Part shown: piece by piece, positions 5,765 through 20,700 of the stretch
Layout: each line of letters starts with the position of its first letter
Position numbering within the stretch: the stretch's first letter is position 1
Virus genome (UHGV): UHGV-0377100
Origin: a virus
DNA length: 41,500 bases
Reading direction: 5' to 3' (one strand)
Position numbers and translations under genes: made by a program
The notes under the pieces: generated by a model
Database searches by the model: none
The model's input: the letters and a program-made list of their open reading frames with translations, nothing else
What the model was told of the DNA's origin: nothing

Positions 5765-6349
5765 ATGAGGACGATACAGAAAACATTATTTTATATGTCT
5801 TCTTTTATACCACTTTATCTGTTATTGATTGTTCAAAACTTCAAGTTCAGAAATGAATCAGGAAAATTTTCTTGGCAAACGATCTTTGATCAAATTAATT
5901 TTTCAAATAAAATTATTACATTATTTTGGATTGGCTTAATAGTCATGATTATTCTATCATTATTTGGATGTGTTATCTTTTTTAAGATTTATGGTGCAAA
6001 AGAAGGTAGAAATGGTAGCATATCAGATGCAGAATTTGTTAGAGAAGACACTATGGGGTATATTGTGACATATATAATTCCGTTGTTATCCATGGATATA
6101 ACAAGTTTGAGAAGCTTAGTAGTTAATTTACTGTTATTTATCATTATAGGGACTTTTTATGTTAAGAACGATCAGATATTTATGAACCCATTATATAATT
6201 TATTTGGGTATAATATATTTTCTGCTGAAAGTGGAATTTATATCACTAAAATATCCAAGCAAAAGTTGAAATTGTTTGCTAAAAGAGATGTAAAAGTTAA
6301 AAAGATAAATATAATGGGAGATATATACGTACTGAAAGAAAATGAATAA
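5765..6349 (+). CDS. Hypothetical 4-TM membrane protein, moron gene 2.
   Basis: ORF track 5726..6349. ATG at 5765 follows the AAGAGGTG RBS. Four hydrophobic helices (LFYMSSFIPLYLLLIV, IITLFWIGLIVMIILSLFGCVIFF, GYIVTYIIPLL, LVVNLLLFIIIGTFYV). Tightly linked to gene 1. Confidence 0.6.
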   Translation: MRTIQKTLFYMSSFIPLYLLLIVQNFKFRNESGKFSWQTIFDQINFSNKIITLFWIGLIVMIILSLFGCVIFFKIYGAKEGRNGSISDAEFVREDTMGYIVTYIIPLLSMDITSLRSLVVNLLLFIIIGTFYVKNDQIFMNPLYNLFGYNIFSAESGIYITKISKQKLKLFAKRDVKVKKINIMGDIYVLKENE

Positions 6350-7539: not shown

Positions 7540-8343
7540 ATGGCTAGAAAAAGAGATCCACGTCGTGACCAGGCTAAAGAAATTTGGTTAAAGTCAAACG
7601 GCAAAAAGGTTCTTAAAGAATTAGCTAATGAACTAAATGTTTCGGATTCTCAAATAAGGAAATGGAAATCTATAGATAAATGGGCTGATGAATTAAAAGG
7701 TAATGTTACCAATTCAAAAAGTAACGTTACCAATAAAGGTGGAGCGCCGCCTGGGAACAAAAATGCTATAGGTAACAAAGGAAATAAAACTGCCTCACCG
7801 CCAAAAAGAAATAAGAATGCGGTAAAAACAGGCGAATATGAAACAATATTTGCCGATATGTTATCTGACGAAGAAAAGGACATCTATTCTACAATGAATG
7901 ATGATCCTTTTTTTATTTTGGAGGAAGAAATAAGAATCCTAAAAATTCGTCAATATAGAATGCTTAAACGCATCAAAGATGCAGAGGTTGACTTAAACGA
8001 TGAAGAAGTTGAACGTTTGCAGCAGCTTCGGAAAGTCAAAGAGCCATCGGTGATTGATGGAAAAATGGTCACTGTCAAGAGAGAAGTTTTAAAAGATGTG
8101 CAAGTAACTCGTAAAACATTTAGAAAACTAGATGACATTTTGGCTATTGAGGAAGCATTGACAAGAATTAGCAATCAGTTAACAAAGGCTATTAAGCAAC
8201 AGAATGCCTTGCTAGCAAATGATGCCAAATTACAATTATTGAAGGTTCAAACTGAAAAAGTTAAAGCTAGTTTAGATGCTACAAATGGAGACATGGATAT
8301 GCCAGTTTTCATCGATGATATATCAGGTGATGAATATGAGTAA
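7540..8343 (+). CDS. terS: Terminase small subunit with an N-terminal HTH.
   Basis: MARKRDPRRDQAKEIWLKSNGKKVLKELANELNVSDSQIRKWK is a TerS-type HTH. Gly/Asn/Lys-rich linker. Overlaps terL by 8 nt. Confidence 0.7.
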   Translation: MARKRDPRRDQAKEIWLKSNGKKVLKELANELNVSDSQIRKWKSIDKWADELKGNVTNSKSNVTNKGGAPPGNKNAIGNKGNKTASPPKRNKNAVKTGEYETIFADMLSDEEKDIYSTMNDDPFFILEEEIRILKIRQYRMLKRIKDAEVDLNDEEVERLQQLRKVKEPSVIDGKMVTVKREVLKDVQVTRKTFRKLDDILAIEEALTRISNQLTKAIKQQNALLANDAKLQLLKVQTEKVKASLDATNGDMDMPVFIDDISGDEYE

Positions 8344-13495: not shown

Positions 13496-14428
13496 ATGAA
13501 GAAAAAACAATTAATGAAAATGGATATTCAAATGTTTGCTCAAACATGGAATCCAGACAACGTCACTGTATTAGAGAAAAAAGATGGAACAATTCCAGAT
13601 AAGTACAACACTTTAATTTTAAAAGATGTGATGGAAAATTCTAAGTTAATGCAGTTGGCTAAATATGAAGAAATGGACGGCAAAGAAAAGAAATTCGAAT
13701 ACTTTGCAGAAGGTCCTGGGGCGTACTGGGTTGGTGAAGGCGAAAAAATTAAAACGTCTAAACCTAAATGGTTAAACGTAACGATGACTGCGAAAAAAAT
13801 TGGTGTTATTATCCCAGTTTCTCGGGAATATTTAACTTATAAGATGTCTGATTTCTTTACTCAAATGCAACCAAAAATCGCAGAAGCATTTTATAAGAAA
13901 ATTGATGCGGCTACTATCCTTGATAAAGAAAATCCATTCTCTCAATCTATTGAAAAATCTGTCATTGCAGCTAGTAATGTAATTGAGGGCGACTTGACAT
14001 ATGACAACATTTTAGCATTAGAGGATTTGCTTGGAGAAGGTGAATACGATCCGAATGCTTTCATTTCTAATCGTAAGAATCGTACAGTGCTACGTGAAGC
14101 AAGTAAAAAAATTGGTGACACAACTCAATTTATTTATGATCGTGTCAGCAATACTATTGATGGACTACCTGTAGCAGATCTAAAATCTATGGATAAGGGA
14201 AACCTTTATACTGGTGATTTTGATTACTTGCGCTATGGTATCCCATTTAACATTAATTTCAAAATTTCAGAAGAAGCTCAATTATCTACTTTAACGAATG
14301 AAGACGGTACGCCTGTCAACTTGTACGAACAAGAATTGGTTGCTTTACGAGCTACAATGGATATTGGTTTCATGGTCATCAAAGATGAAGCATTTGCTAA
14401 GATTCAAACAAAAGCTGCGGGGGAGTAA
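13496..14428 (+). CDS. Major capsid protein. A longer form to 14490 is predicted via a -1 shift near the stop.
   Basis: 310 aa ORF after the scaffold gene. N-terminus MKKKQLMKMDIQMFA|QTW carries a Prp-like motif. The -1 frame stays open from 14401 to 14490 and encodes the conserved peptide SPVVGKVTPTTNGATIELT. Confidence 0.75.
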   Translation: MKKKQLMKMDIQMFAQTWNPDNVTVLEKKDGTIPDKYNTLILKDVMENSKLMQLAKYEEMDGKEKKFEYFAEGPGAYWVGEGEKIKTSKPKWLNVTMTAKKIGVIIPVSREYLTYKMSDFFTQMQPKIAEAFYKKIDAATILDKENPFSQSIEKSVIAASNVIEGDLTYDNILALEDLLGEGEYDPNAFISNRKNRTVLREASKKIGDTTQFIYDRVSNTIDGLPVADLKSMDKGNLYTGDFDYLRYGIPFNINFKISEEAQLSTLTNEDGTPVNLYEQELVALRATMDIGFMVIKDEAFAKIQTKAAGE

Positions 14429-14501
14429 CTAGCCCTGTTGTCGGAAAAGTAACACCGACAACAAATGGGGCGACAATCGAACTAACTTAGGTGGTGTTTT
14501 G

Positions 14502-15166: not shown

Positions 15167-15521
15167 TGGATTAGCTGGAATTTCTAAAAAACTAAAGAGA
15201 AATGCTCAACTTGATGATGTGAAAAAAGTTGTTAGAAATAACACAGCAGAATTAACCGCCAATATGCAAGCTGAAGCCGGAAAAGTGTTAACTGGACACT
15301 GGGAAGGTAAAAAGTTTGTTAAACCAACTGGGGCAACAAAAAGAAGTATCATTATGAGGCTTTCGAACAATGGTTTTTCTGGGCATACAGGACCAGGAAC
15401 GGAATACGCACCGTATTTAATAAACGGTACGAGATTTATGGTGAAACGTGATTTCTTTTTACCGCCGCTGAAACAACAAAAAGTGAAATTTAGAACGGAC
15501 TTGGAAAGGTTGATGAAATGA
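15138..15521 (+). CDS. Tail component (HK97 gp10-like).
   Basis: Position and size. Confidence 0.45.
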
Positions 15522-15907
15522 TTAAAACAAGAGATCAATCAATCTTCGATGAAGTGTATAAGAAGTGTCAATCACTGGGTTATGAAACCTACGATTATAA
15601 ACCTATGAATGATGTAGGTTATCCATTTGTCGAATTAGAAGATACTCAGACACTGCACCAAGCCAACAAAACTGATATTAAAGGTTCGGTTACATTGAAT
15701 CTATCTGTATGGGGATTGGCAAAAAAACGTAAACAAATATCGGATATGGCTTCAGCAATTTTTGCTGAGGCTCTATCTATTTCTGAAACGGAAGGTTATT
15801 ATTGGTCGCTCAATATCCAATCAAGCGGTATTCGGTTAGTAGATGACATTTCGACTAACACACCATTGAAGCGGGCAATGATATCTTTAGAATTCAAAAT
15901 ACTATAG
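15518..15907 (+). CDS. Tail completion protein.
   Basis: Position directly before the major tail gene. Confidence 0.45.
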
Positions 15908-15922
15908 AGAGAAGGAATATAA

Positions 15923-16453
15923 ATGGCTAATGAAGCAAAAGTAGCGGCTAAAGGTATTGATATTATTTTACTTTTCCGTTTGTTAAAAAAATCAAAAGAG
16001 GAAGCAGCATGGAAATTAGCTTTCCAGACAGAACATGAAAATACAAAAACAAAAGATAGTGACTCTGTGACCACTAAAGATGGTCCGATTCGCATCCCAG
16101 GATCATTGGAAATTGATTTTTCGGCAACATCTATTTTATCAGTCGGTGATCCGTATGTTGACCAGCTAGAAGAAGCTTTAGACAATGACGATATTATTGA
16201 AATCTGGGAAATCAACAAAGCAGAAAAAGGCACAGGAGATAATGCTGACAAATACAAGGCAACCTATTACCAAGGATACGTAACATCATTTGGTAAATCG
16301 CCTAATGCTGAAGACACCGTAGAAGTTTCATTAGAATTTGGTATCAATGGTAAAGGTGCAAAAGGATTTGCAACATTAACTGCTGATCAAGAAGAAGTAG
16401 TTCAATATGTCTTCAAAGATACGACTATTGAAACAGATGATCCGGGAAAGTAG
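15923..16453 (+). CDS. Major tail protein. A longer form to 16515 is predicted via -1 frameshift at G GGA AAG (16444-16450).
   Basis: 176 aa ORF before the Ig-like and chaperone genes. The slippery heptamer lies in the last codons. The -1 frame is open from 16441 to 16515 and encodes VDSPVVGNVTPTVDGASIELS. Confidence 0.7.
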   Translation: MANEAKVAAKGIDIILLFRLLKKSKEEAAWKLAFQTEHENTKTKDSDSVTTKDGPIRIPGSLEIDFSATSILSVGDPYVDQLEEALDNDDIIEIWEINKAEKGTGDNADKYKATYYQGYVTSFGKSPNAEDTVEVSLEFGINGKGAKGFATLTADQEEVVQYVFKDTTIETDDPGK

Positions 16454-16533
16454 ATAGCCCTGTTGTGGGTAATGTAACTCCTACAGTCGATGGGGCATCT
16501 ATTGAATTAAGCTAAGAAAGGAAAATTAATATA

Positions 16534-16989
16534 ATGGATACTTTTAAAATTTATAAAGGCCAAACCGAAGTTGTTTCCGGCACATCACCTTTAACTATAA
16601 CAGGAATGGAACCTGACACCTCAGTGCCGGCTGGTGAGTACCAAGTAACTCGTGTTGTTAATGGGAAAGAATCAGAGCGAGTAGATATTCCAGCTTTTAA
16701 AACATTGTCTATTGCTGTAACTGGCTTAGAGTTTTCTCCTAAAACATCAACAGCAGATGCGGGTACTGCAGGTAGCCGACAAATCACAGCAACTGTCTTG
16801 CCTGAAAATGCAACCAACAAAAAAGTAACCTATAAGATTACGCCTGAAACAGAAGGTCTTGCTGTCTCTGAAACAGGAAATATTACTTGGACAGAAGCGG
16901 TACCGGCTGGTGTTTATACCACAACAGGAACAACAGAGGATGGTAAAAAAACAGCTCAACACACCTTAACATTGAATAATCAAGCTTAA
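16534..16989 (+). CDS. Ig-like (Big_2-type) domain protein.
   Basis: Beta-rich, Thr/Gly-rich repeats (TYKITPETEGLAVSETGNITWT). Confidence 0.55.
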   Translation: MDTFKIYKGQTEVVSGTSPLTITGMEPDTSVPAGEYQVTRVVNGKESERVDIPAFKTLSIAVTGLEFSPKTSTADAGTAGSRQITATVLPENATNKKVTYKITPETEGLAVSETGNITWTEAVPAGVYTTTGTTEDGKKTAQHTLTLNNQA

Positions 16990-17001
16990 AATAAAATTTA
17001 G

Positions 17002-17028
17002 AGGGCAGCTTAGCGGCTGTCCTTTTCT
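17002..17028 (+). terminator. Rho-independent terminator.
   Basis: GGGCAGC-TTAGCG-GCTGTCC followed by TTTTCTT. Confidence 0.5.
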
Positions 17029-17043
17029 TATGGAGGAAAAGAC

Positions 17044-17394
17044 ATGCAAATCGAAATTAAAGGGAAAAAATATAACTGTATTTTTGGAGTCAAGTTTATT
17101 CGTGAATTGGATAAGCAGCATGGGGTAGTTCGTAATGATGTGAATCTTGGTATGGGACTAACAACATTATTACCGCAGCTAGTAAGTGGAAATATCGTTG
17201 TTCTATCTGATGTACTTTACACAGCTACCATTACGGAAAAAAGTAGACCTTCTAAGGATGAAGTAGATGAGTTTGTTGAAACTGTTGATGATATTGAGGC
17301 GTTATTTGATGAAACGTTGAAAAACTTAGAAGAAAGCAATGCGGGAAAGTTAACGGTCAGAAATTTCAAGAAAGCTCTGATGGAGAACAAGTAA
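17044..17394 (+). CDS. Tail assembly chaperone G.
   Basis: 116 aa acidic protein directly upstream of the tape measure gene. Confidence 0.65.
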   Translation: MQIEIKGKKYNCIFGVKFIRELDKQHGVVRNDVNLGMGLTTLLPQLVSGNIVVLSDVLYTATITEKSRPSKDEVDEFVETVDDIEALFDETLKNLEESNAGKLTVRNFKKALMENK

Positions 17395-17744
17395 GAGAGG
17401 AGCTAACCTCAGCTGAAGCTTATGAAAATATTCTTATTAATTGTTTTCGTTACCTAGAAATTACTGATTTATCAAAAATCGAACGAATGACTTTGTATGA
17501 ATATGAAGTTAGGCTATTGTCGTTTCAGTTAAAAAGACTTGACCATGAAAGAGACCTCTATCTTCAATCTTGGCTAAATAACCAAATTAAGGCGACTAAA
17601 GGTAAAAAATCTGAACCTTATTATAAGGAATTCAATAAGTTTTTCAATTATGAAGAACGAGAGAAGCTTATTTTGGGTAAATCATTAATTGATGAAAAAG
17701 TTGATATAGGAGCAATAGATTTATTAAGAAAAGCAAATAAGTAG
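17044..17744 (+). CDS. Tail assembly chaperone GT fusion produced by -1 programmed frameshift at G GGA AAG (17343-17349).
   Basis: The -1 frame is open from 17343 to 17744 and contains the annotated 17487..17744 ORF. The canonical XXXYYYZ heptamer sits 45 nt before the G stop. Confidence 0.6.
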
Positions 17745-17759
17745 GAAAGGAGGAAAATA

Positions 17760-20700
17760 ATGGAATCATATTCAGTCGAAGCAATACTTACTGCCACTGA
17801 TAGAACGTTTAGTAGCACGATGAGTAGCGCTGAACGTTCTATGGCTGGTGTAAACAAGCAATCTGGTGAGCTAGGGGATGGATTGGATAAAAGCACCACT
17901 AAAGGGAATCAATTAGGCAAGTCAATTCTTAGTATTGGAGCAGGTGTGGGTGCCGTAAAATTAGTGTCTACGGCCGTAAATATGGTTAAGGATTCTGTTG
18001 AAGGAGCTATTAACCGTTTTGATACGTTGAATAAATATCCTGTAGTTATGAAGGCTCTAGGTTACTCAACAGAAGATGTAGATAGATCAATGACTAAGTT
18101 AAGTGATGGAATTGATGGGCTTCCTACATCGTTAGATGAAATCGTATCAAATACGCAACAGTTAGCAATTTCAACTGGTAGCTTGAGTAAAGGAACTGAC
18201 ACAGCTATTGCATTAAATGATGCCTTTCTTGCTTCTGGAGCTTCAACTGCTGATGCAACTCGTGGTATGCAACAATATATTCAAATGCTCGGTAAGGGTG
18301 AAGTTGATATGCAGTCTTGGCGAACATTACAAGAAACAATGCCGATTGCGATGGATAAAGTTGCTAAGTCTTTCAAAGAACAAGGTGTAAACTCAGTTAA
18401 CCAATTATACGATGCCTTAAAAGAAGGAGATATTACATTTAATGAGTTCAATAATCGTTTGATTGAGTTGGACAAAGGCGTAGGTGGTTTTGCGGATTTA
18501 GCCAAGAAAAACTCAAAAGGTATCAAGACCTCATGGGCAAATATTAAAACAGCCACCGTTAAAGGTGTAACTACAGTTATTAAATCATTTGATGAATTAT
18601 CCAAAGCAGTGACAGGAAAAAATATTGCCGAAAATTTGGACTCTTTAAAAAATGTAGTGAATATAACTTTTAAGGCAATTGATGCAGCGATTCAATCAAC
18701 TATTCCATTGATGAAACTATTCGGAAAAGCAATTACGTCAATAGGTACAGCCTTAACACCATTACTACCAACAATTGCCAGTTTTGCTGCTACCTTCACA
18801 GCATTGAAAGTAATTCAGCAAGTGACAGGCTATATAAAGCAATCTGAATTGGCAATCAAAGCTTATACAACCGCAATAAGTTTATACAATGGAATATCAA
18901 AACTGGCTACGTTATCTACTACAGCACTCGGAAGAGCATGGATGTTAAACTTAGCAGCCGATAAAGCCAATTCTGCAGCAATAGCAATAAAAACTGGTCT
19001 TTTAGTGGCGCAAAATACAATCGTTGGTGTTTTGACGGGAACAATTAGTTTAGCTACAGTAGCTACAACTGTTTTTAGTACCGCTATGAAATTGTTATTG
19101 GGCCCTATTGGTTGGGTAATAGCCGCAATAGGAGGACTAGTAGCTGTAGGGGTAAACTTGTGGAAATGGTTAAATAAGGAAACTGAATCAACTAAGGCAG
19201 TTAAAAAAGAGCAAGAAAACCTTATGAAAACCACAGATGACTTGATTAAAAAGAATCAAGAACATGCACAATCCCGAAAAGATGAAGCTATTGAGTTAGA
19301 AAATACTAAAGAAAAATATAATTCAATGATTTCTGAAATGGCAACGCTCGCTGCTAAAGAGAAATTAAGTAACAGCGAGAAAAAACGTATGACAGAAATT
19401 GTTGAAGAGTTAAACGGTAAAATGACTGGTTTAAACTTAGTTTACGATGAACAAAGTAATAAACTTTCTGAAATGCCAGGTAAAATTCAACAACAAATGG
19501 ACGCATATAGCGCATTAGATAAAGCTTCTCAAGCTCAAGAAGATATCAATAAGATGTTGCAGCAAAGAAATGACAATGAAGCAAAATTAATGGAAATCAA
19601 TGCAGCTAGGGAAAAATGGAATCAGACGTTAAAAGAATCTGGCGGGAATACAAAAGAAGCTCGTGAAAATATTGAAAAATTGGGCGAGCAAGAAAAAGTT
19701 TTGATGGGCGTTCAAGAAGATTTGAGAAATGATATTATAAATACTGCTAAAACACATGAATCCGCAATCCAAACAGCTAGTCAAGCTGTAGCAAATGGAG
19801 TTTTAGAGCAGACAGTTTCTTACTATTCATTGAAGGGTAAAACAAAAGAAACAATGGATGCTATGCGGGCTGAATATTCATCGCTTGAAACAAAAGTGGG
19901 TAGCGCCTTTGATGTTATTGAGCAAAAGCAGGCTATTTCAGTTGATCAGATGGCTGCTAACTTACAGAAGAACCAAGAAGCTGTTAGCCAATGGAGCACT
20001 AATATTGCTACGTTAGCACAGCGAGGGGTAGATGAAGGGCTTTTAGAGCAACTAAGGAAAATGGGGCCTGAAGGTGCTGCCCAAGCAGCAGAATTAGTTA
20101 ATTCTTCAGATGAACAATTACAACGCTTAAATGATGTCTATCGTAATACTGGTGAAACTTCCATGAATGCGATGAAAGAAGGCTACCAGTTAGGTAAAAA
20201 TGGTGTTAATGATGAAATAGCAAGCCTCATCCCAACCCAAAAAGATACATTAATGACTCAGATTAAGAGCACCGATTTTAGTAGTGTAGGTAAAAGTGTT
20301 ACTGAAGACTTTAAAGCAGGAATTGAGAATGGTAGAAATGCAGTAGCAGAAATGACCAAAGGAATTGTTCCACAAATGGGAACCGATATGAAAGGTGAAG
20401 TTGAAAAGGCTAATTTCCCTGATATAGGTAAAGCTATCCCTCAAGGTCTAGAGAAAGGTATTGGAGCTAACAAACAATTACCTGTAAAAACATCTAATCA
20501 AATGATTGATGATGTTGTTTCTGGTGCCAGAAAAGGTTTAGATTCTCACTCTCCTTCTCGTGTATTTCACTCAATTGGTGAAGATGTTGATTCTGGATTA
20601 TCAAACGGTATCGAACAAAACGCAATGAATCCAGTAAGAGCTGTTGAGTCTATTGTTGATAAAATAATTTTTGCAATGGATAAATTGCCATCAGAAATGA

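Follow-up and report, generated by a model that had tools for sequence, protein, structure and literature searches.

A frameshift-encoded tag on the tail-tube and capsid proteins of an Enterococcus-type siphophage and its probable role in completing a split FN3 domain

The window analyzed here, a 41,500-nucleotide stretch of the virus genome UHGV-0377100, groups with the Enterococcus faecalis siphophages phiEf11, EFC-1, and IME197, with which it shares 96.5 to 98.3% nucleotide identity across positions 15500-17800. Its major tail (tube) protein gene, whose product matches Pfam PF06199 (Phage_tail_2, 1.1e-18) and PHROG 238 (major tail protein), ends in a slippery heptamer that adjoins the stop codon, and the -1 frame beyond it encodes a short C-terminal extension, herein the tag. 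A homologous tag lies behind the major capsid protein gene. Downstream of the tail-tube tag stands a gene for a putative decoration protein, the N terminus of which resembles an FN3 domain that lacks its first two strands (FN3-prime). The positions of these features are given in Table 1.

Table 1. Features at the capsid, tail-tube, and chaperone genes of the window
Feature	Position	Strand	Basis or remarks
Major capsid protein gene, 310 residues, zero frame	13496..14428	+	Pfam PF05065, 1.8e-31; ends GCG GGG GAG TAA
Candidate capsid shift site G_GGG_GAG (14419-14425) adjoining TAA, then -1 frame tag VTSPVVGKVTPTTNGATIELT (14425-14487) and TAG (14488-14490)	14419..14490	+	translation
Major tail (tube) protein gene, 176 residues, zero frame	15923..16453	+	open reading frame list; ends ...DDPGK-TAG
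Slippery heptamer G_GGA_AAG in X_XXY_YYZ phase, adjoining the zero-frame TAG	16444..16450	+	sequence and conservation
-1 frame extension (tag), 21 codons VDSPVVGNVTPTVDGASIELS (16450-16512) and TAA (16513-16515)	16450..16515	+	translation
Predicted stimulatory hairpin of the tail site; 6-nucleotide spacer UAGAUA, then hairpin	16451..16501	+	folding
Putative decoration protein gene, 151 residues, 16.5 kDa	16534..16989	+	in frame with the tag; one TAA and a ribosome-binding site lie between
FN3-prime (FN3 without strands A-B), residues 1-58	16534-16707	+	profile and fold match
Second in-phase G_GGA_AAG, the G/GT tail-assembly-chaperone frameshift site of gene 17044..17394	17343..17349	+	Pfam Phage_TAC_12, 4e-32

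The final codons of the tail-tube gene are CCG (16442-16444), GGA (16445-16447), AAG (16448-16450), and TAG (16451-16453); the first base of the heptamer is the third base of a zero-frame codon, so that the phase is right for slippage. A first-pass annotation, made from the letters of the window alone, had read this gene end as a canonical slippery site, and both its coordinates and its sequence are correct; the 22 codons that it counted in the -1 frame up to the TAA correspond to 21 sense codons plus the stop. Slippage is annotated at the tail gene in none of the public records, and no experiment on the tail protein of this phage was found in the literature within reach. GGGAAAG itself occurs four times in the window against 4.26 expected, which is not above chance, and a third plus-strand copy, at 16663 inside the decoration protein gene, is out of phase (GGG AAA G). 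Because the frequency of the heptamer is that expected by chance, the significance of the tail site rests on its context and not on the count.

That context is strongly conserved. In all close frameshift-type relatives the tail heptamer is unchanged; the codon before it varies among CCG, TCG, and CTG (Pro to Ser or Leu), always with the third-position G kept. Among 80 related viral loci, every one whose tube protein is at least 95% identical carries a tag after the tube gene and another after the capsid gene. Across 66 distinct tag sequences the entropy of the tag frame at codon positions 1, 2, and 3 is 0.87, 0.71, and 1.48, respectively, and the other two frames are closed by stops in 66 of 66 and 65 of 66; the periodicity shows that purifying selection acts on the tag frame. 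A tag profile built from nine seeds finds the ends of the tail gene (47.4 bits) and the capsid gene (44.9 bits) when the window is scanned, the next best score on either strand being 4.9 bits. With a cutoff of 10 bits and over 166 sources, the same profile has 158 hits, all of them on the gene strand, the opposite strand yielding zero.

In some relatives the tag is joined to the tail protein in frame. The annotated tail protein of phiEf11 has 197 residues versus 176, since CCAGAAAAAG in place of CC-GGGAAAG fuses the tag directly. At least three different and independent fusions of this kind are found (DDPEKVDSP, TADHGKVDSP in L026, and TASLGKVDSP in P0001); they occur in phiEf11, in loci L026-L030, and in P0001, which represents a cluster of 159 sequences. 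Given these natural fusions, the tag peptide is demonstrably a C terminus of the tail protein in nature, and its presence on every subunit is tolerated. The idea that no recoding takes place, the heptamer and the short -1 open reading frame (ORF) being accidental, would fit the unremarkable number of heptamers in the window. The strand bias of the tag hits, the in-frame variants, and the other comparative evidence effectively refute it, and we give it almost no credence. The invariant heptamer, the codon periodicity, and the in-frame relatives strongly support a programmed -1 shift at G_GGA_AAG that adds a capsid-like tag to the tail-tube protein, much as the first-pass annotation had proposed.

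From its shift site, the -1 frame of the capsid gene reads (G)GVTSPVVGKVTPTTNGATIELT before TAG. The earlier suggestion that the tail protein receives the same tag as the capsid protein holds insofar as a homologous tag lies on both, but the two are not identical, agreeing at 15 of 21 residues. They differ at 18 nucleotides, 10 of these at third codon positions; in the tag frame the differing codons comprise seven synonymous changes and six conservative replacements, compared with 3/10 and 0/13 in the other two frames. The nucleotide identity between the tail and capsid regions is 71% within the tag versus 43% upstream and 23% downstream, so that the likeness is confined to the tag.

The two genes do not share a slippery motif. 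The capsid G_GGG_GAG is a non-canonical heptamer, at which perfect re-pairing is possible for tRNA-Gly only; it also resembles a Shine-Dalgarno sequence. As the capsid site uses a different motif, the earlier claim that the phage relies on one heptamer three or more times is wrong: G_GGA_AAG is in phase only twice, at the tail gene and at the chaperone. The identity of the chaperone heptamer with that of the tail gene had been recognized correctly, and the -1 frame beyond it stays free of stops over 131 codons, up to 17744. The G/GT chaperone frameshift, which Xu, Hendrix, and Duda reportedly found to be conserved in 2004, thus has its heptamer in common with the tail site and differs from it in its separate function, its long extension, the lack of an adjacent stop, and the lack of any marked downstream structure (z -0.26).

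Two capsid types exist in the E. faecalis group, one of 310 residues ending in AAGE and the other of about 340 residues ending in DSKK with A_AAA_AAA-TAG (L001 1416-2491, L006, L011, L012, L014, and L026-L030, about position 2012). Both combine freely with one tail module. Their shift sites differ and their tags are homologous, which suggests that the tag moves with, or is reacquired by, swapped capsid genes.

Folding of the region behind the tail heptamer predicts a hairpin whose 13-nucleotide 5' arm GCCCUGUUGUGGG (16457-16469) pairs with 16480-16485 and 16490-16496, with a minimum free energy of -19.7 kcal/mol (z -2.19 versus dinucleotide shuffles). Set against 200 alternative synonymous codings of this peptide, the region stands out as unusually stable (z -2.72). 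The capsid site has a hairpin at 14432-14471 (-19.5 kcal/mol; z -2.71), and the two sites have the same layout of shift site, zero-frame stop, 6-nucleotide spacer, and hairpin with a 13-nucleotide 5' arm. By eye, one compensatory pair can be recognized between the two stems (GUG/CCU with G.U versus GUC/CCG with C-G), with both sides synonymous.

The product of the gene behind the tail-tube tag consists of FN3-prime followed by an Ig-like He_PIG/Big_2 domain (residues 61-148). The gene (at 16534-16989 of the window, L001 4533-4991, L002 4531-4989, and L003 4532-4990) is named "major tail protein" in RefSeq (phiEf11, EFC-1, and IME197) and in PHROG 341. Because the product is without a tube-protein domain and has a truncated FN3 and an Ig-like domain instead, we consider this label to be a probable misannotation. 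The homologs of the product all start with M..FKIYKG; among them, P0182 is hit by Pfam fn3. Elsewhere the gene stands directly after a capsid gene (L084, PF25209; L085, PF05065) or a tube gene (L086, PF04630), and in these three loci a gap of 75-105 nucleotides before it encodes a tag in another frame.

One of these loci reveals the relation between the tag and the following gene. In L085 the tag, (P)NKPVNVDASNVTETSVTLAWD, joined to the N terminus of the next gene's product gives a Pfam fn3 match of 46.4 bits that spans profile positions 2-82; without the tag, the gene product matches positions 29-82 only, at 31.7 bits, and the tag covers no more than profile positions of about 2-28. With hhalign, a profile of the window-type tag plus FN3-prime aligned with the L085 chimera across the junction with a probability of 90.6%, strand B of the tag being included in the alignment. 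An AlphaFold2 (AF2) model of the window FN3-prime (residues 1-59; predicted local distance difference test [pLDDT], 95.7) has four paired strands and leaves the segment of residues 17-29, the FN3 E strand, without a beta partner. The model matches FN3 domains over ~55 residues; the single-domain FN3 chains among the matches listed comprise 88-103 residues.

An exhaustive search of 1.84 billion representative proteins yielded 107 relatives. In 67 short proteins the FN3-prime match begins within the first 12 residues. Internal copies (P0303, P0243, P0249, P0203, and P0220) are preceded by contiguous tag-like strands, with the sequences SPTLTELTPTKDGFTVKLTGSNEDSTFRIYDK in P0303 and PPTIESVTPTEDGAVVIVVSG in P0243. 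On the strength of the fn3 match that spans the junction, the contiguous halves in other proteins, and the fold match, the tag is assigned by homology to strands A-B, and the start of the downstream gene to strands C-G, of one FN3 subfamily.

FN3-prime heads varied cargo (P0195, P0187, P0193, P0210, P0215, and P0253), including Big_2, He_PIG, G5 (PF07501), and PF20622 domains and long uncharacterized regions; this variety fits a docking module with exchangeable payloads. In some proteins FN3-prime is N-terminal and a tag C-terminal (P0132, from L087 284-1060; P0246, P0295, and P0270), and some of these two-part proteins, such as P0246, have only 85 residues and consist of the truncated FN3 and the tag alone. 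As their linker looks too short for self-completion, proteins with both parts might polymerize or act as extenders.

We consider the following course of events probable as a whole. A fraction of the ribosomes on the tail-tube gene would slip into the -1 frame at G_GGA_AAG as the TAG arrives, an event probably aided by the hairpin that starts 6 nucleotides downstream; the slipped ribosomes would add the 21 residues VDSPVVGNVTPTVDGASIELS and stop at TAA. The same would happen on the capsid gene at G_GGG_GAG-TAA. A tag on a capsid or tube subunit would then insert into the incomplete FN3 of the 16534-16989 product and complete the domain, and the Ig-like protein, which may be adhesive, would thereby be plugged onto both head and tail, with an occupancy set by the efficiency of frameshifting. 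Since the tag corresponds to the two missing first strands of the next protein's FN3, anchoring of that protein to head and tail is its most likely purpose.

The distribution of the two halves is consistent with such docking. Of 168 sources, 82 have both the tag and the truncated FN3, 70 have neither, and 16 are discordant. The sources that lack both include tube relatives of at most 84% identity, in which the stop is followed directly by a terminator. Only one source has a tag alone, and this is a contig that ends early; the other 15 have FN3-prime and no profile hit. On inspection, 14 of the 15 carry divergent tags, most of which lie behind a +1 shift site, CCC-TAA/TGA/TAG, and two behind the -1 site A_AAA_AAA; the remaining one (L090) is ambiguous, with a possible in-frame tag upstream. 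Two tags are present in 74 of the 97 FN3-prime loci. Distinct -1 contexts number 31 for capsid and 32 for tube genes, to which two in-frame tube fusions are added. The shift motifs adjoin the zero-frame stop, GGGGGAG|TAR being the commonest (31 contexts) and GGGAAAG|TAR the second (14 contexts); at the rarer TCA_AAA|TAA only a single-tRNA slip is possible. The same arrangement is found on capsid families PF05065 and PF25209 and on tube families PF06199 and PF04630, and it occurs in prophages of Oceanobacillus, Siminovitchia, Geomicrobium, Bacillus, Atopostipes, and several Enterococcus species.

Wherever an FN3-prime gene follows a tag, the tag stop lies 4-18 nucleotides upstream of its start. 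This spacing would suit a purely regulatory explanation, in which shifted ribosomes of the window end at the TAA 18 nucleotides before the next ATG and reinitiate there, so that expression of the Ig-like protein is coupled to the shift and the peptide is incidental; the hairpin could keep the region covered until opened by a ribosome that has shifted. We regard this as improbable, because the capsid tag of the window and about half of all tags have no FN3-prime gene behind them, the peptide is conserved with synonymous variation, and the in-frame fusions retain it. Translational coupling could be an additional feature and not an alternative to docking. Through termination-reinitiation, the amount of decoration protein made could be adjusted to how many ribosomes have shifted.

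The closest structural match to the truncated FN3 is BppA of phage Tuc2009, residues 230-282 of which match the truncated-FN3 profile with 17.8 bits (E 2.8e-7). In Legrand et al. 2016 (PMC4742702; Protein Data Bank [PDB]: 5E7T), the 25-residue C-terminal beta-hairpin of Tuc2009 BppU is described as completing the sheet of a BppA domain, and the resulting composite domain as resembling titin FN3. The BppU C terminus, KPPTNLIVSDVTSTSAKISWENGG, is a sequence of the same kind as the tag. By analogy, Tuc2009 is a solved example of the docking proposed here, with a homologous pair: in both, a C-terminal A-B segment of ~20-25 residues on a structural protein is matched by a partner FN3 without strands A-B. 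The two differ in the placement of the halves. The Tuc2009 hairpin is encoded in frame as part of a baseplate protein, and BppA carries its partial domain C-terminally; the hairpin of the window would be added to the capsid and tail-tube proteins by recoding, and it is an Ig-like protein that carries the partial domain, at its N terminus. The accessible portions of PMC4742702 and PMC6669499 do not describe the split domain as a general system. In the partially accessible literature, a split-FN3 decoration system fed by recoding was not found beyond the Tuc2009 structure.

Recoding of both major virion genes is itself known. Recoded capsid and tail genes are found in Lactobacillus A2 (-1), Listeria PSA (+1), A118/A500, SPP1, and the 936 phages, and frameshift-extended major tail proteins with Ig-like domains are said to have been described by Fraser and colleagues in 2006. 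Like the window, Lactobacillus A2, Listeria PSA, and A118/A500 recode both major virion proteins at the 3' end, next to the stop. The tube genes of SPP1 (gp17.1*), Listeria A500 (Tsh), and the lactococcal 936 phages (TpeX) are also recoded at the 3' end, and a subset of subunits displays an Ig-fold adhesin (FN3/Big_2). In these three the extended polypeptide contains the whole domain, whereas here the extension comprises 21 residues of A-B only and the rest is encoded by a separate gene. Because the domain is split between two genes and the 21-residue extension stops at TAA, the window lacks the defining feature of the whole-domain-extension class. Unlike whole-domain extensions of the gp17.1* type, the arrangement allows one decoration protein to serve head and tail.

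Listeria PSA and A500 were considered as members of the split-FN3 group and rejected, their signals being alike and their extensions unrelated to the tag. In A500 (L169) cps ends with GCG GGA AAC TAA at 6059 (G_GGA_AAC-TAA) and has a -1 SAP-like extension, and tsh reads AAA CCC TGA at 8161, with a +1 extension that is a whole Big_2; in PSA (L168; 5148 and 7290) tsh ends with ACA CCC TGA. The extensions of the two phages are a SAP/gpFI-like segment on the capsid protein, an acidic tail on PSA Tsh, and a whole Big_2 on A500 Tsh. Both signals, G_GGA_AAC-TAA and CCC-TGA, turn up again among the split-FN3 loci. It is as if stop-adjacent recoding cassettes were common to Firmicutes phages, with differing payloads.

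Complete FN3/Ig extensions made by frameshift, as in SPP1 gp17.1* (PMC8718954) and A500 Tsh, raise another possibility: a full tube-FN3-Ig extension may have existed in an ancestor and been cut by a stop, leaving the tag as its decaying remainder, or the full fusion may still be made by the -1 shift combined with read-through of the TAA. In the window the tag and the next gene are indeed in the same frame with one TAA between them. Against this, relatives show no variation in the stop, the ribosome-binding site, or the start codon; elsewhere tag and gene lie in different frames or several stops apart; the capsid tag is present with no FN3-prime gene behind it; and the tag is under purifying selection, the break always falling just after strand B. 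A remnant or read-through origin is therefore very doubtful.

Earlier work on phiEf11 bears on the capsid and tail extensions. Stevens et al. 2016 (PMC5221750) proposed, in a suggestion that they termed speculative, a -1 shift on the capsid gene ORF10; in our analysis a -1 shift at A_AAA_AAA-TAG of this gene leads to a 21-residue extension that is a variant of the window tag. phiEf11 virions show two capsid-protein bands ~3 kDa apart, which is indirect evidence for two products, and the tail protein ran at 28 kDa versus a predicted 21.5 kDa, which the authors left unexplained (PMC5221750). They state that no alternative frame extends ORF15 (PMC5221750); that ORF15 ends with the same peptide in frame is not noted, nor is a link drawn to ORF16. 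A decoration protein of 16.5 kDa would run below 27 kDa, outside the phiEf11 bands analyzed.

Several observations weigh against docking of a recoded tag, or narrow its support. Mass spectrometry did not find the capsid extension peptides of phiEf11 among the bands analyzed, which were those of at least 27 kDa (PMC5221750). The counts of loci include many close relatives and overstate the number of independent events. RNA support is moderate across the family, with a mean z of -1.26 against synonymous recodings and 26% of values below -2; RNAalifold found no consensus structure for 66 ungapped tag regions, and by pair counts only a CCC:GGG stem core is general, which is inseparable from conserved Pro and Gly codons. 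With no family-wide consensus fold and a stem core that coincides with these codons, the predicted hairpin is a likely stimulator in this phage and is unproven as one across the family. Pfam fn3 does not recognize the window's own chimera of tag and FN3-prime, and a search of the PDB by sequence with the window-type chimera profile gave nothing significant; the FN3 assignment in the window phage rests on clearer homologs and on the fold match. As AF2 folds FN3-prime by itself with high confidence, the domain may be stable without a partner. In an AF2 model of P0132 (FN3-prime, two Big_2 domains, and a tag) the tag is undocked, with pLDDT of 60-67; its 8-residue linker is too short to span three domains, and we judge this model uninformative for that reason.

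Confident folding of FN3-prime without the tag and the undocked tag of P0132 would also suit a tag that is real and acts by itself, either as a C-terminal arm that holds neighboring capsid or tube subunits together more firmly or as a signal for assembly, with no binding to the downstream protein. Arms of this sort that stabilize tube rings are known, for example the C-arm of 80alpha gp53 (PMC8718954). Such a role would leave unexplained the near-perfect co-occurrence of tag and FN3-prime over unrelated capsid and tube families, the contiguous halves in other proteins, and the fn3 profile that spans the junction; moreover, in the crystal structure BppA has the homologous BppU hairpin bound to it. 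We therefore think a tag that acts alone unlikely, if less so than the regulatory or remnant explanations. None of the rivals explains the co-occurrence and the half-domain identities as well as split-FN3 docking does.

What is new here is the identity of the tag as half of an FN3 domain that continues in the next gene, which the first-pass annotation had not recognized; split-domain docking would thereby be generalized and fed by recoding. Recoded capsid and tail genes and whole-domain extensions were already known. On balance, and with less assurance than for the events proposed in the window, we lean toward the view that Firmicutes phages share a modular plug-and-socket system derived from a split FN3. 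A plug of 20-25 residues (strands A-B) would be placed on capsid, tube, and other virion proteins by -1 shift, +1 shift, or in-frame fusion, and the socket (strands C-G) would head interchangeable cargo such as Big_2, He_PIG, and G5 domains and others. A single decoration gene could in this way supply head and tail alike, the occupancy being governed by how efficiently recoding occurs, and proteins with both socket and plug (Kayvirus 812 Gp156, P0132, and the 85-residue P0246) could form chains. Stop-adjacent -1 sites rich in G/A and +1 sites of the CCC-stop type would be two routes to one product.

With such a system, many genes now called "second major tail protein" would make sense, as would short, hitherto unexplained extensions that end capsid and tail genes. 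It would give a function to the widespread, probably misannotated gene family PHROG 341 ("major tail protein") and account for the short conserved ORFs that follow capsid and tail genes across many phages of Bacilli, Staphylococcus Triavirus and Kayvirus among them. Known frameshift extensions have been read as whole adhesin domains displayed on some subunits; here the extension would be a docking peptide only, with the adhesin as a separate product. Annotation pipelines would then miss two recoded products per genome in this group. The pair of peptide and domain would also constitute a natural, genetically tunable means of displaying cargo on phage particles.

A +1 form of the arrangement is found in Staphylococcus phage phi12 (L166; 4739 and 6900), in which the capsid and tail genes both end with TTA CCC AGC TAA. 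The +1 frames that follow read PAKPQKVNVTAKAKSAVISAE and PANPQNVEVAVNSKSATVSAE, respectively, and a truncated-FN3/Big_2 gene stands after the tail tag; through phi12, the system would extend to the widespread Triavirus prophages of S. aureus, with a +1 signal. In Kayvirus phage 812 (L167; 5337-6746) the consecutive genes for Gp155, Gp156, and Gp157 form an apparent chain. Gp155 has an in-frame C-terminal tag, APKNVQVTPKEDGADVSAE; Gp156 comprises a truncated FN3, a Big_2 domain, and then a C-terminal tag, APADVTVEPGENSADITV; and Gp157 is a truncated FN3 alone. The order of these parts suggests head-to-tail assembly through split domains with no frameshift. Finally, L172, labeled as a Veillonella sp. 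metagenome-assembled genome, carries the E. faecalis phage module with a decoration protein that is 97% identical, and its label is likely a binning error.

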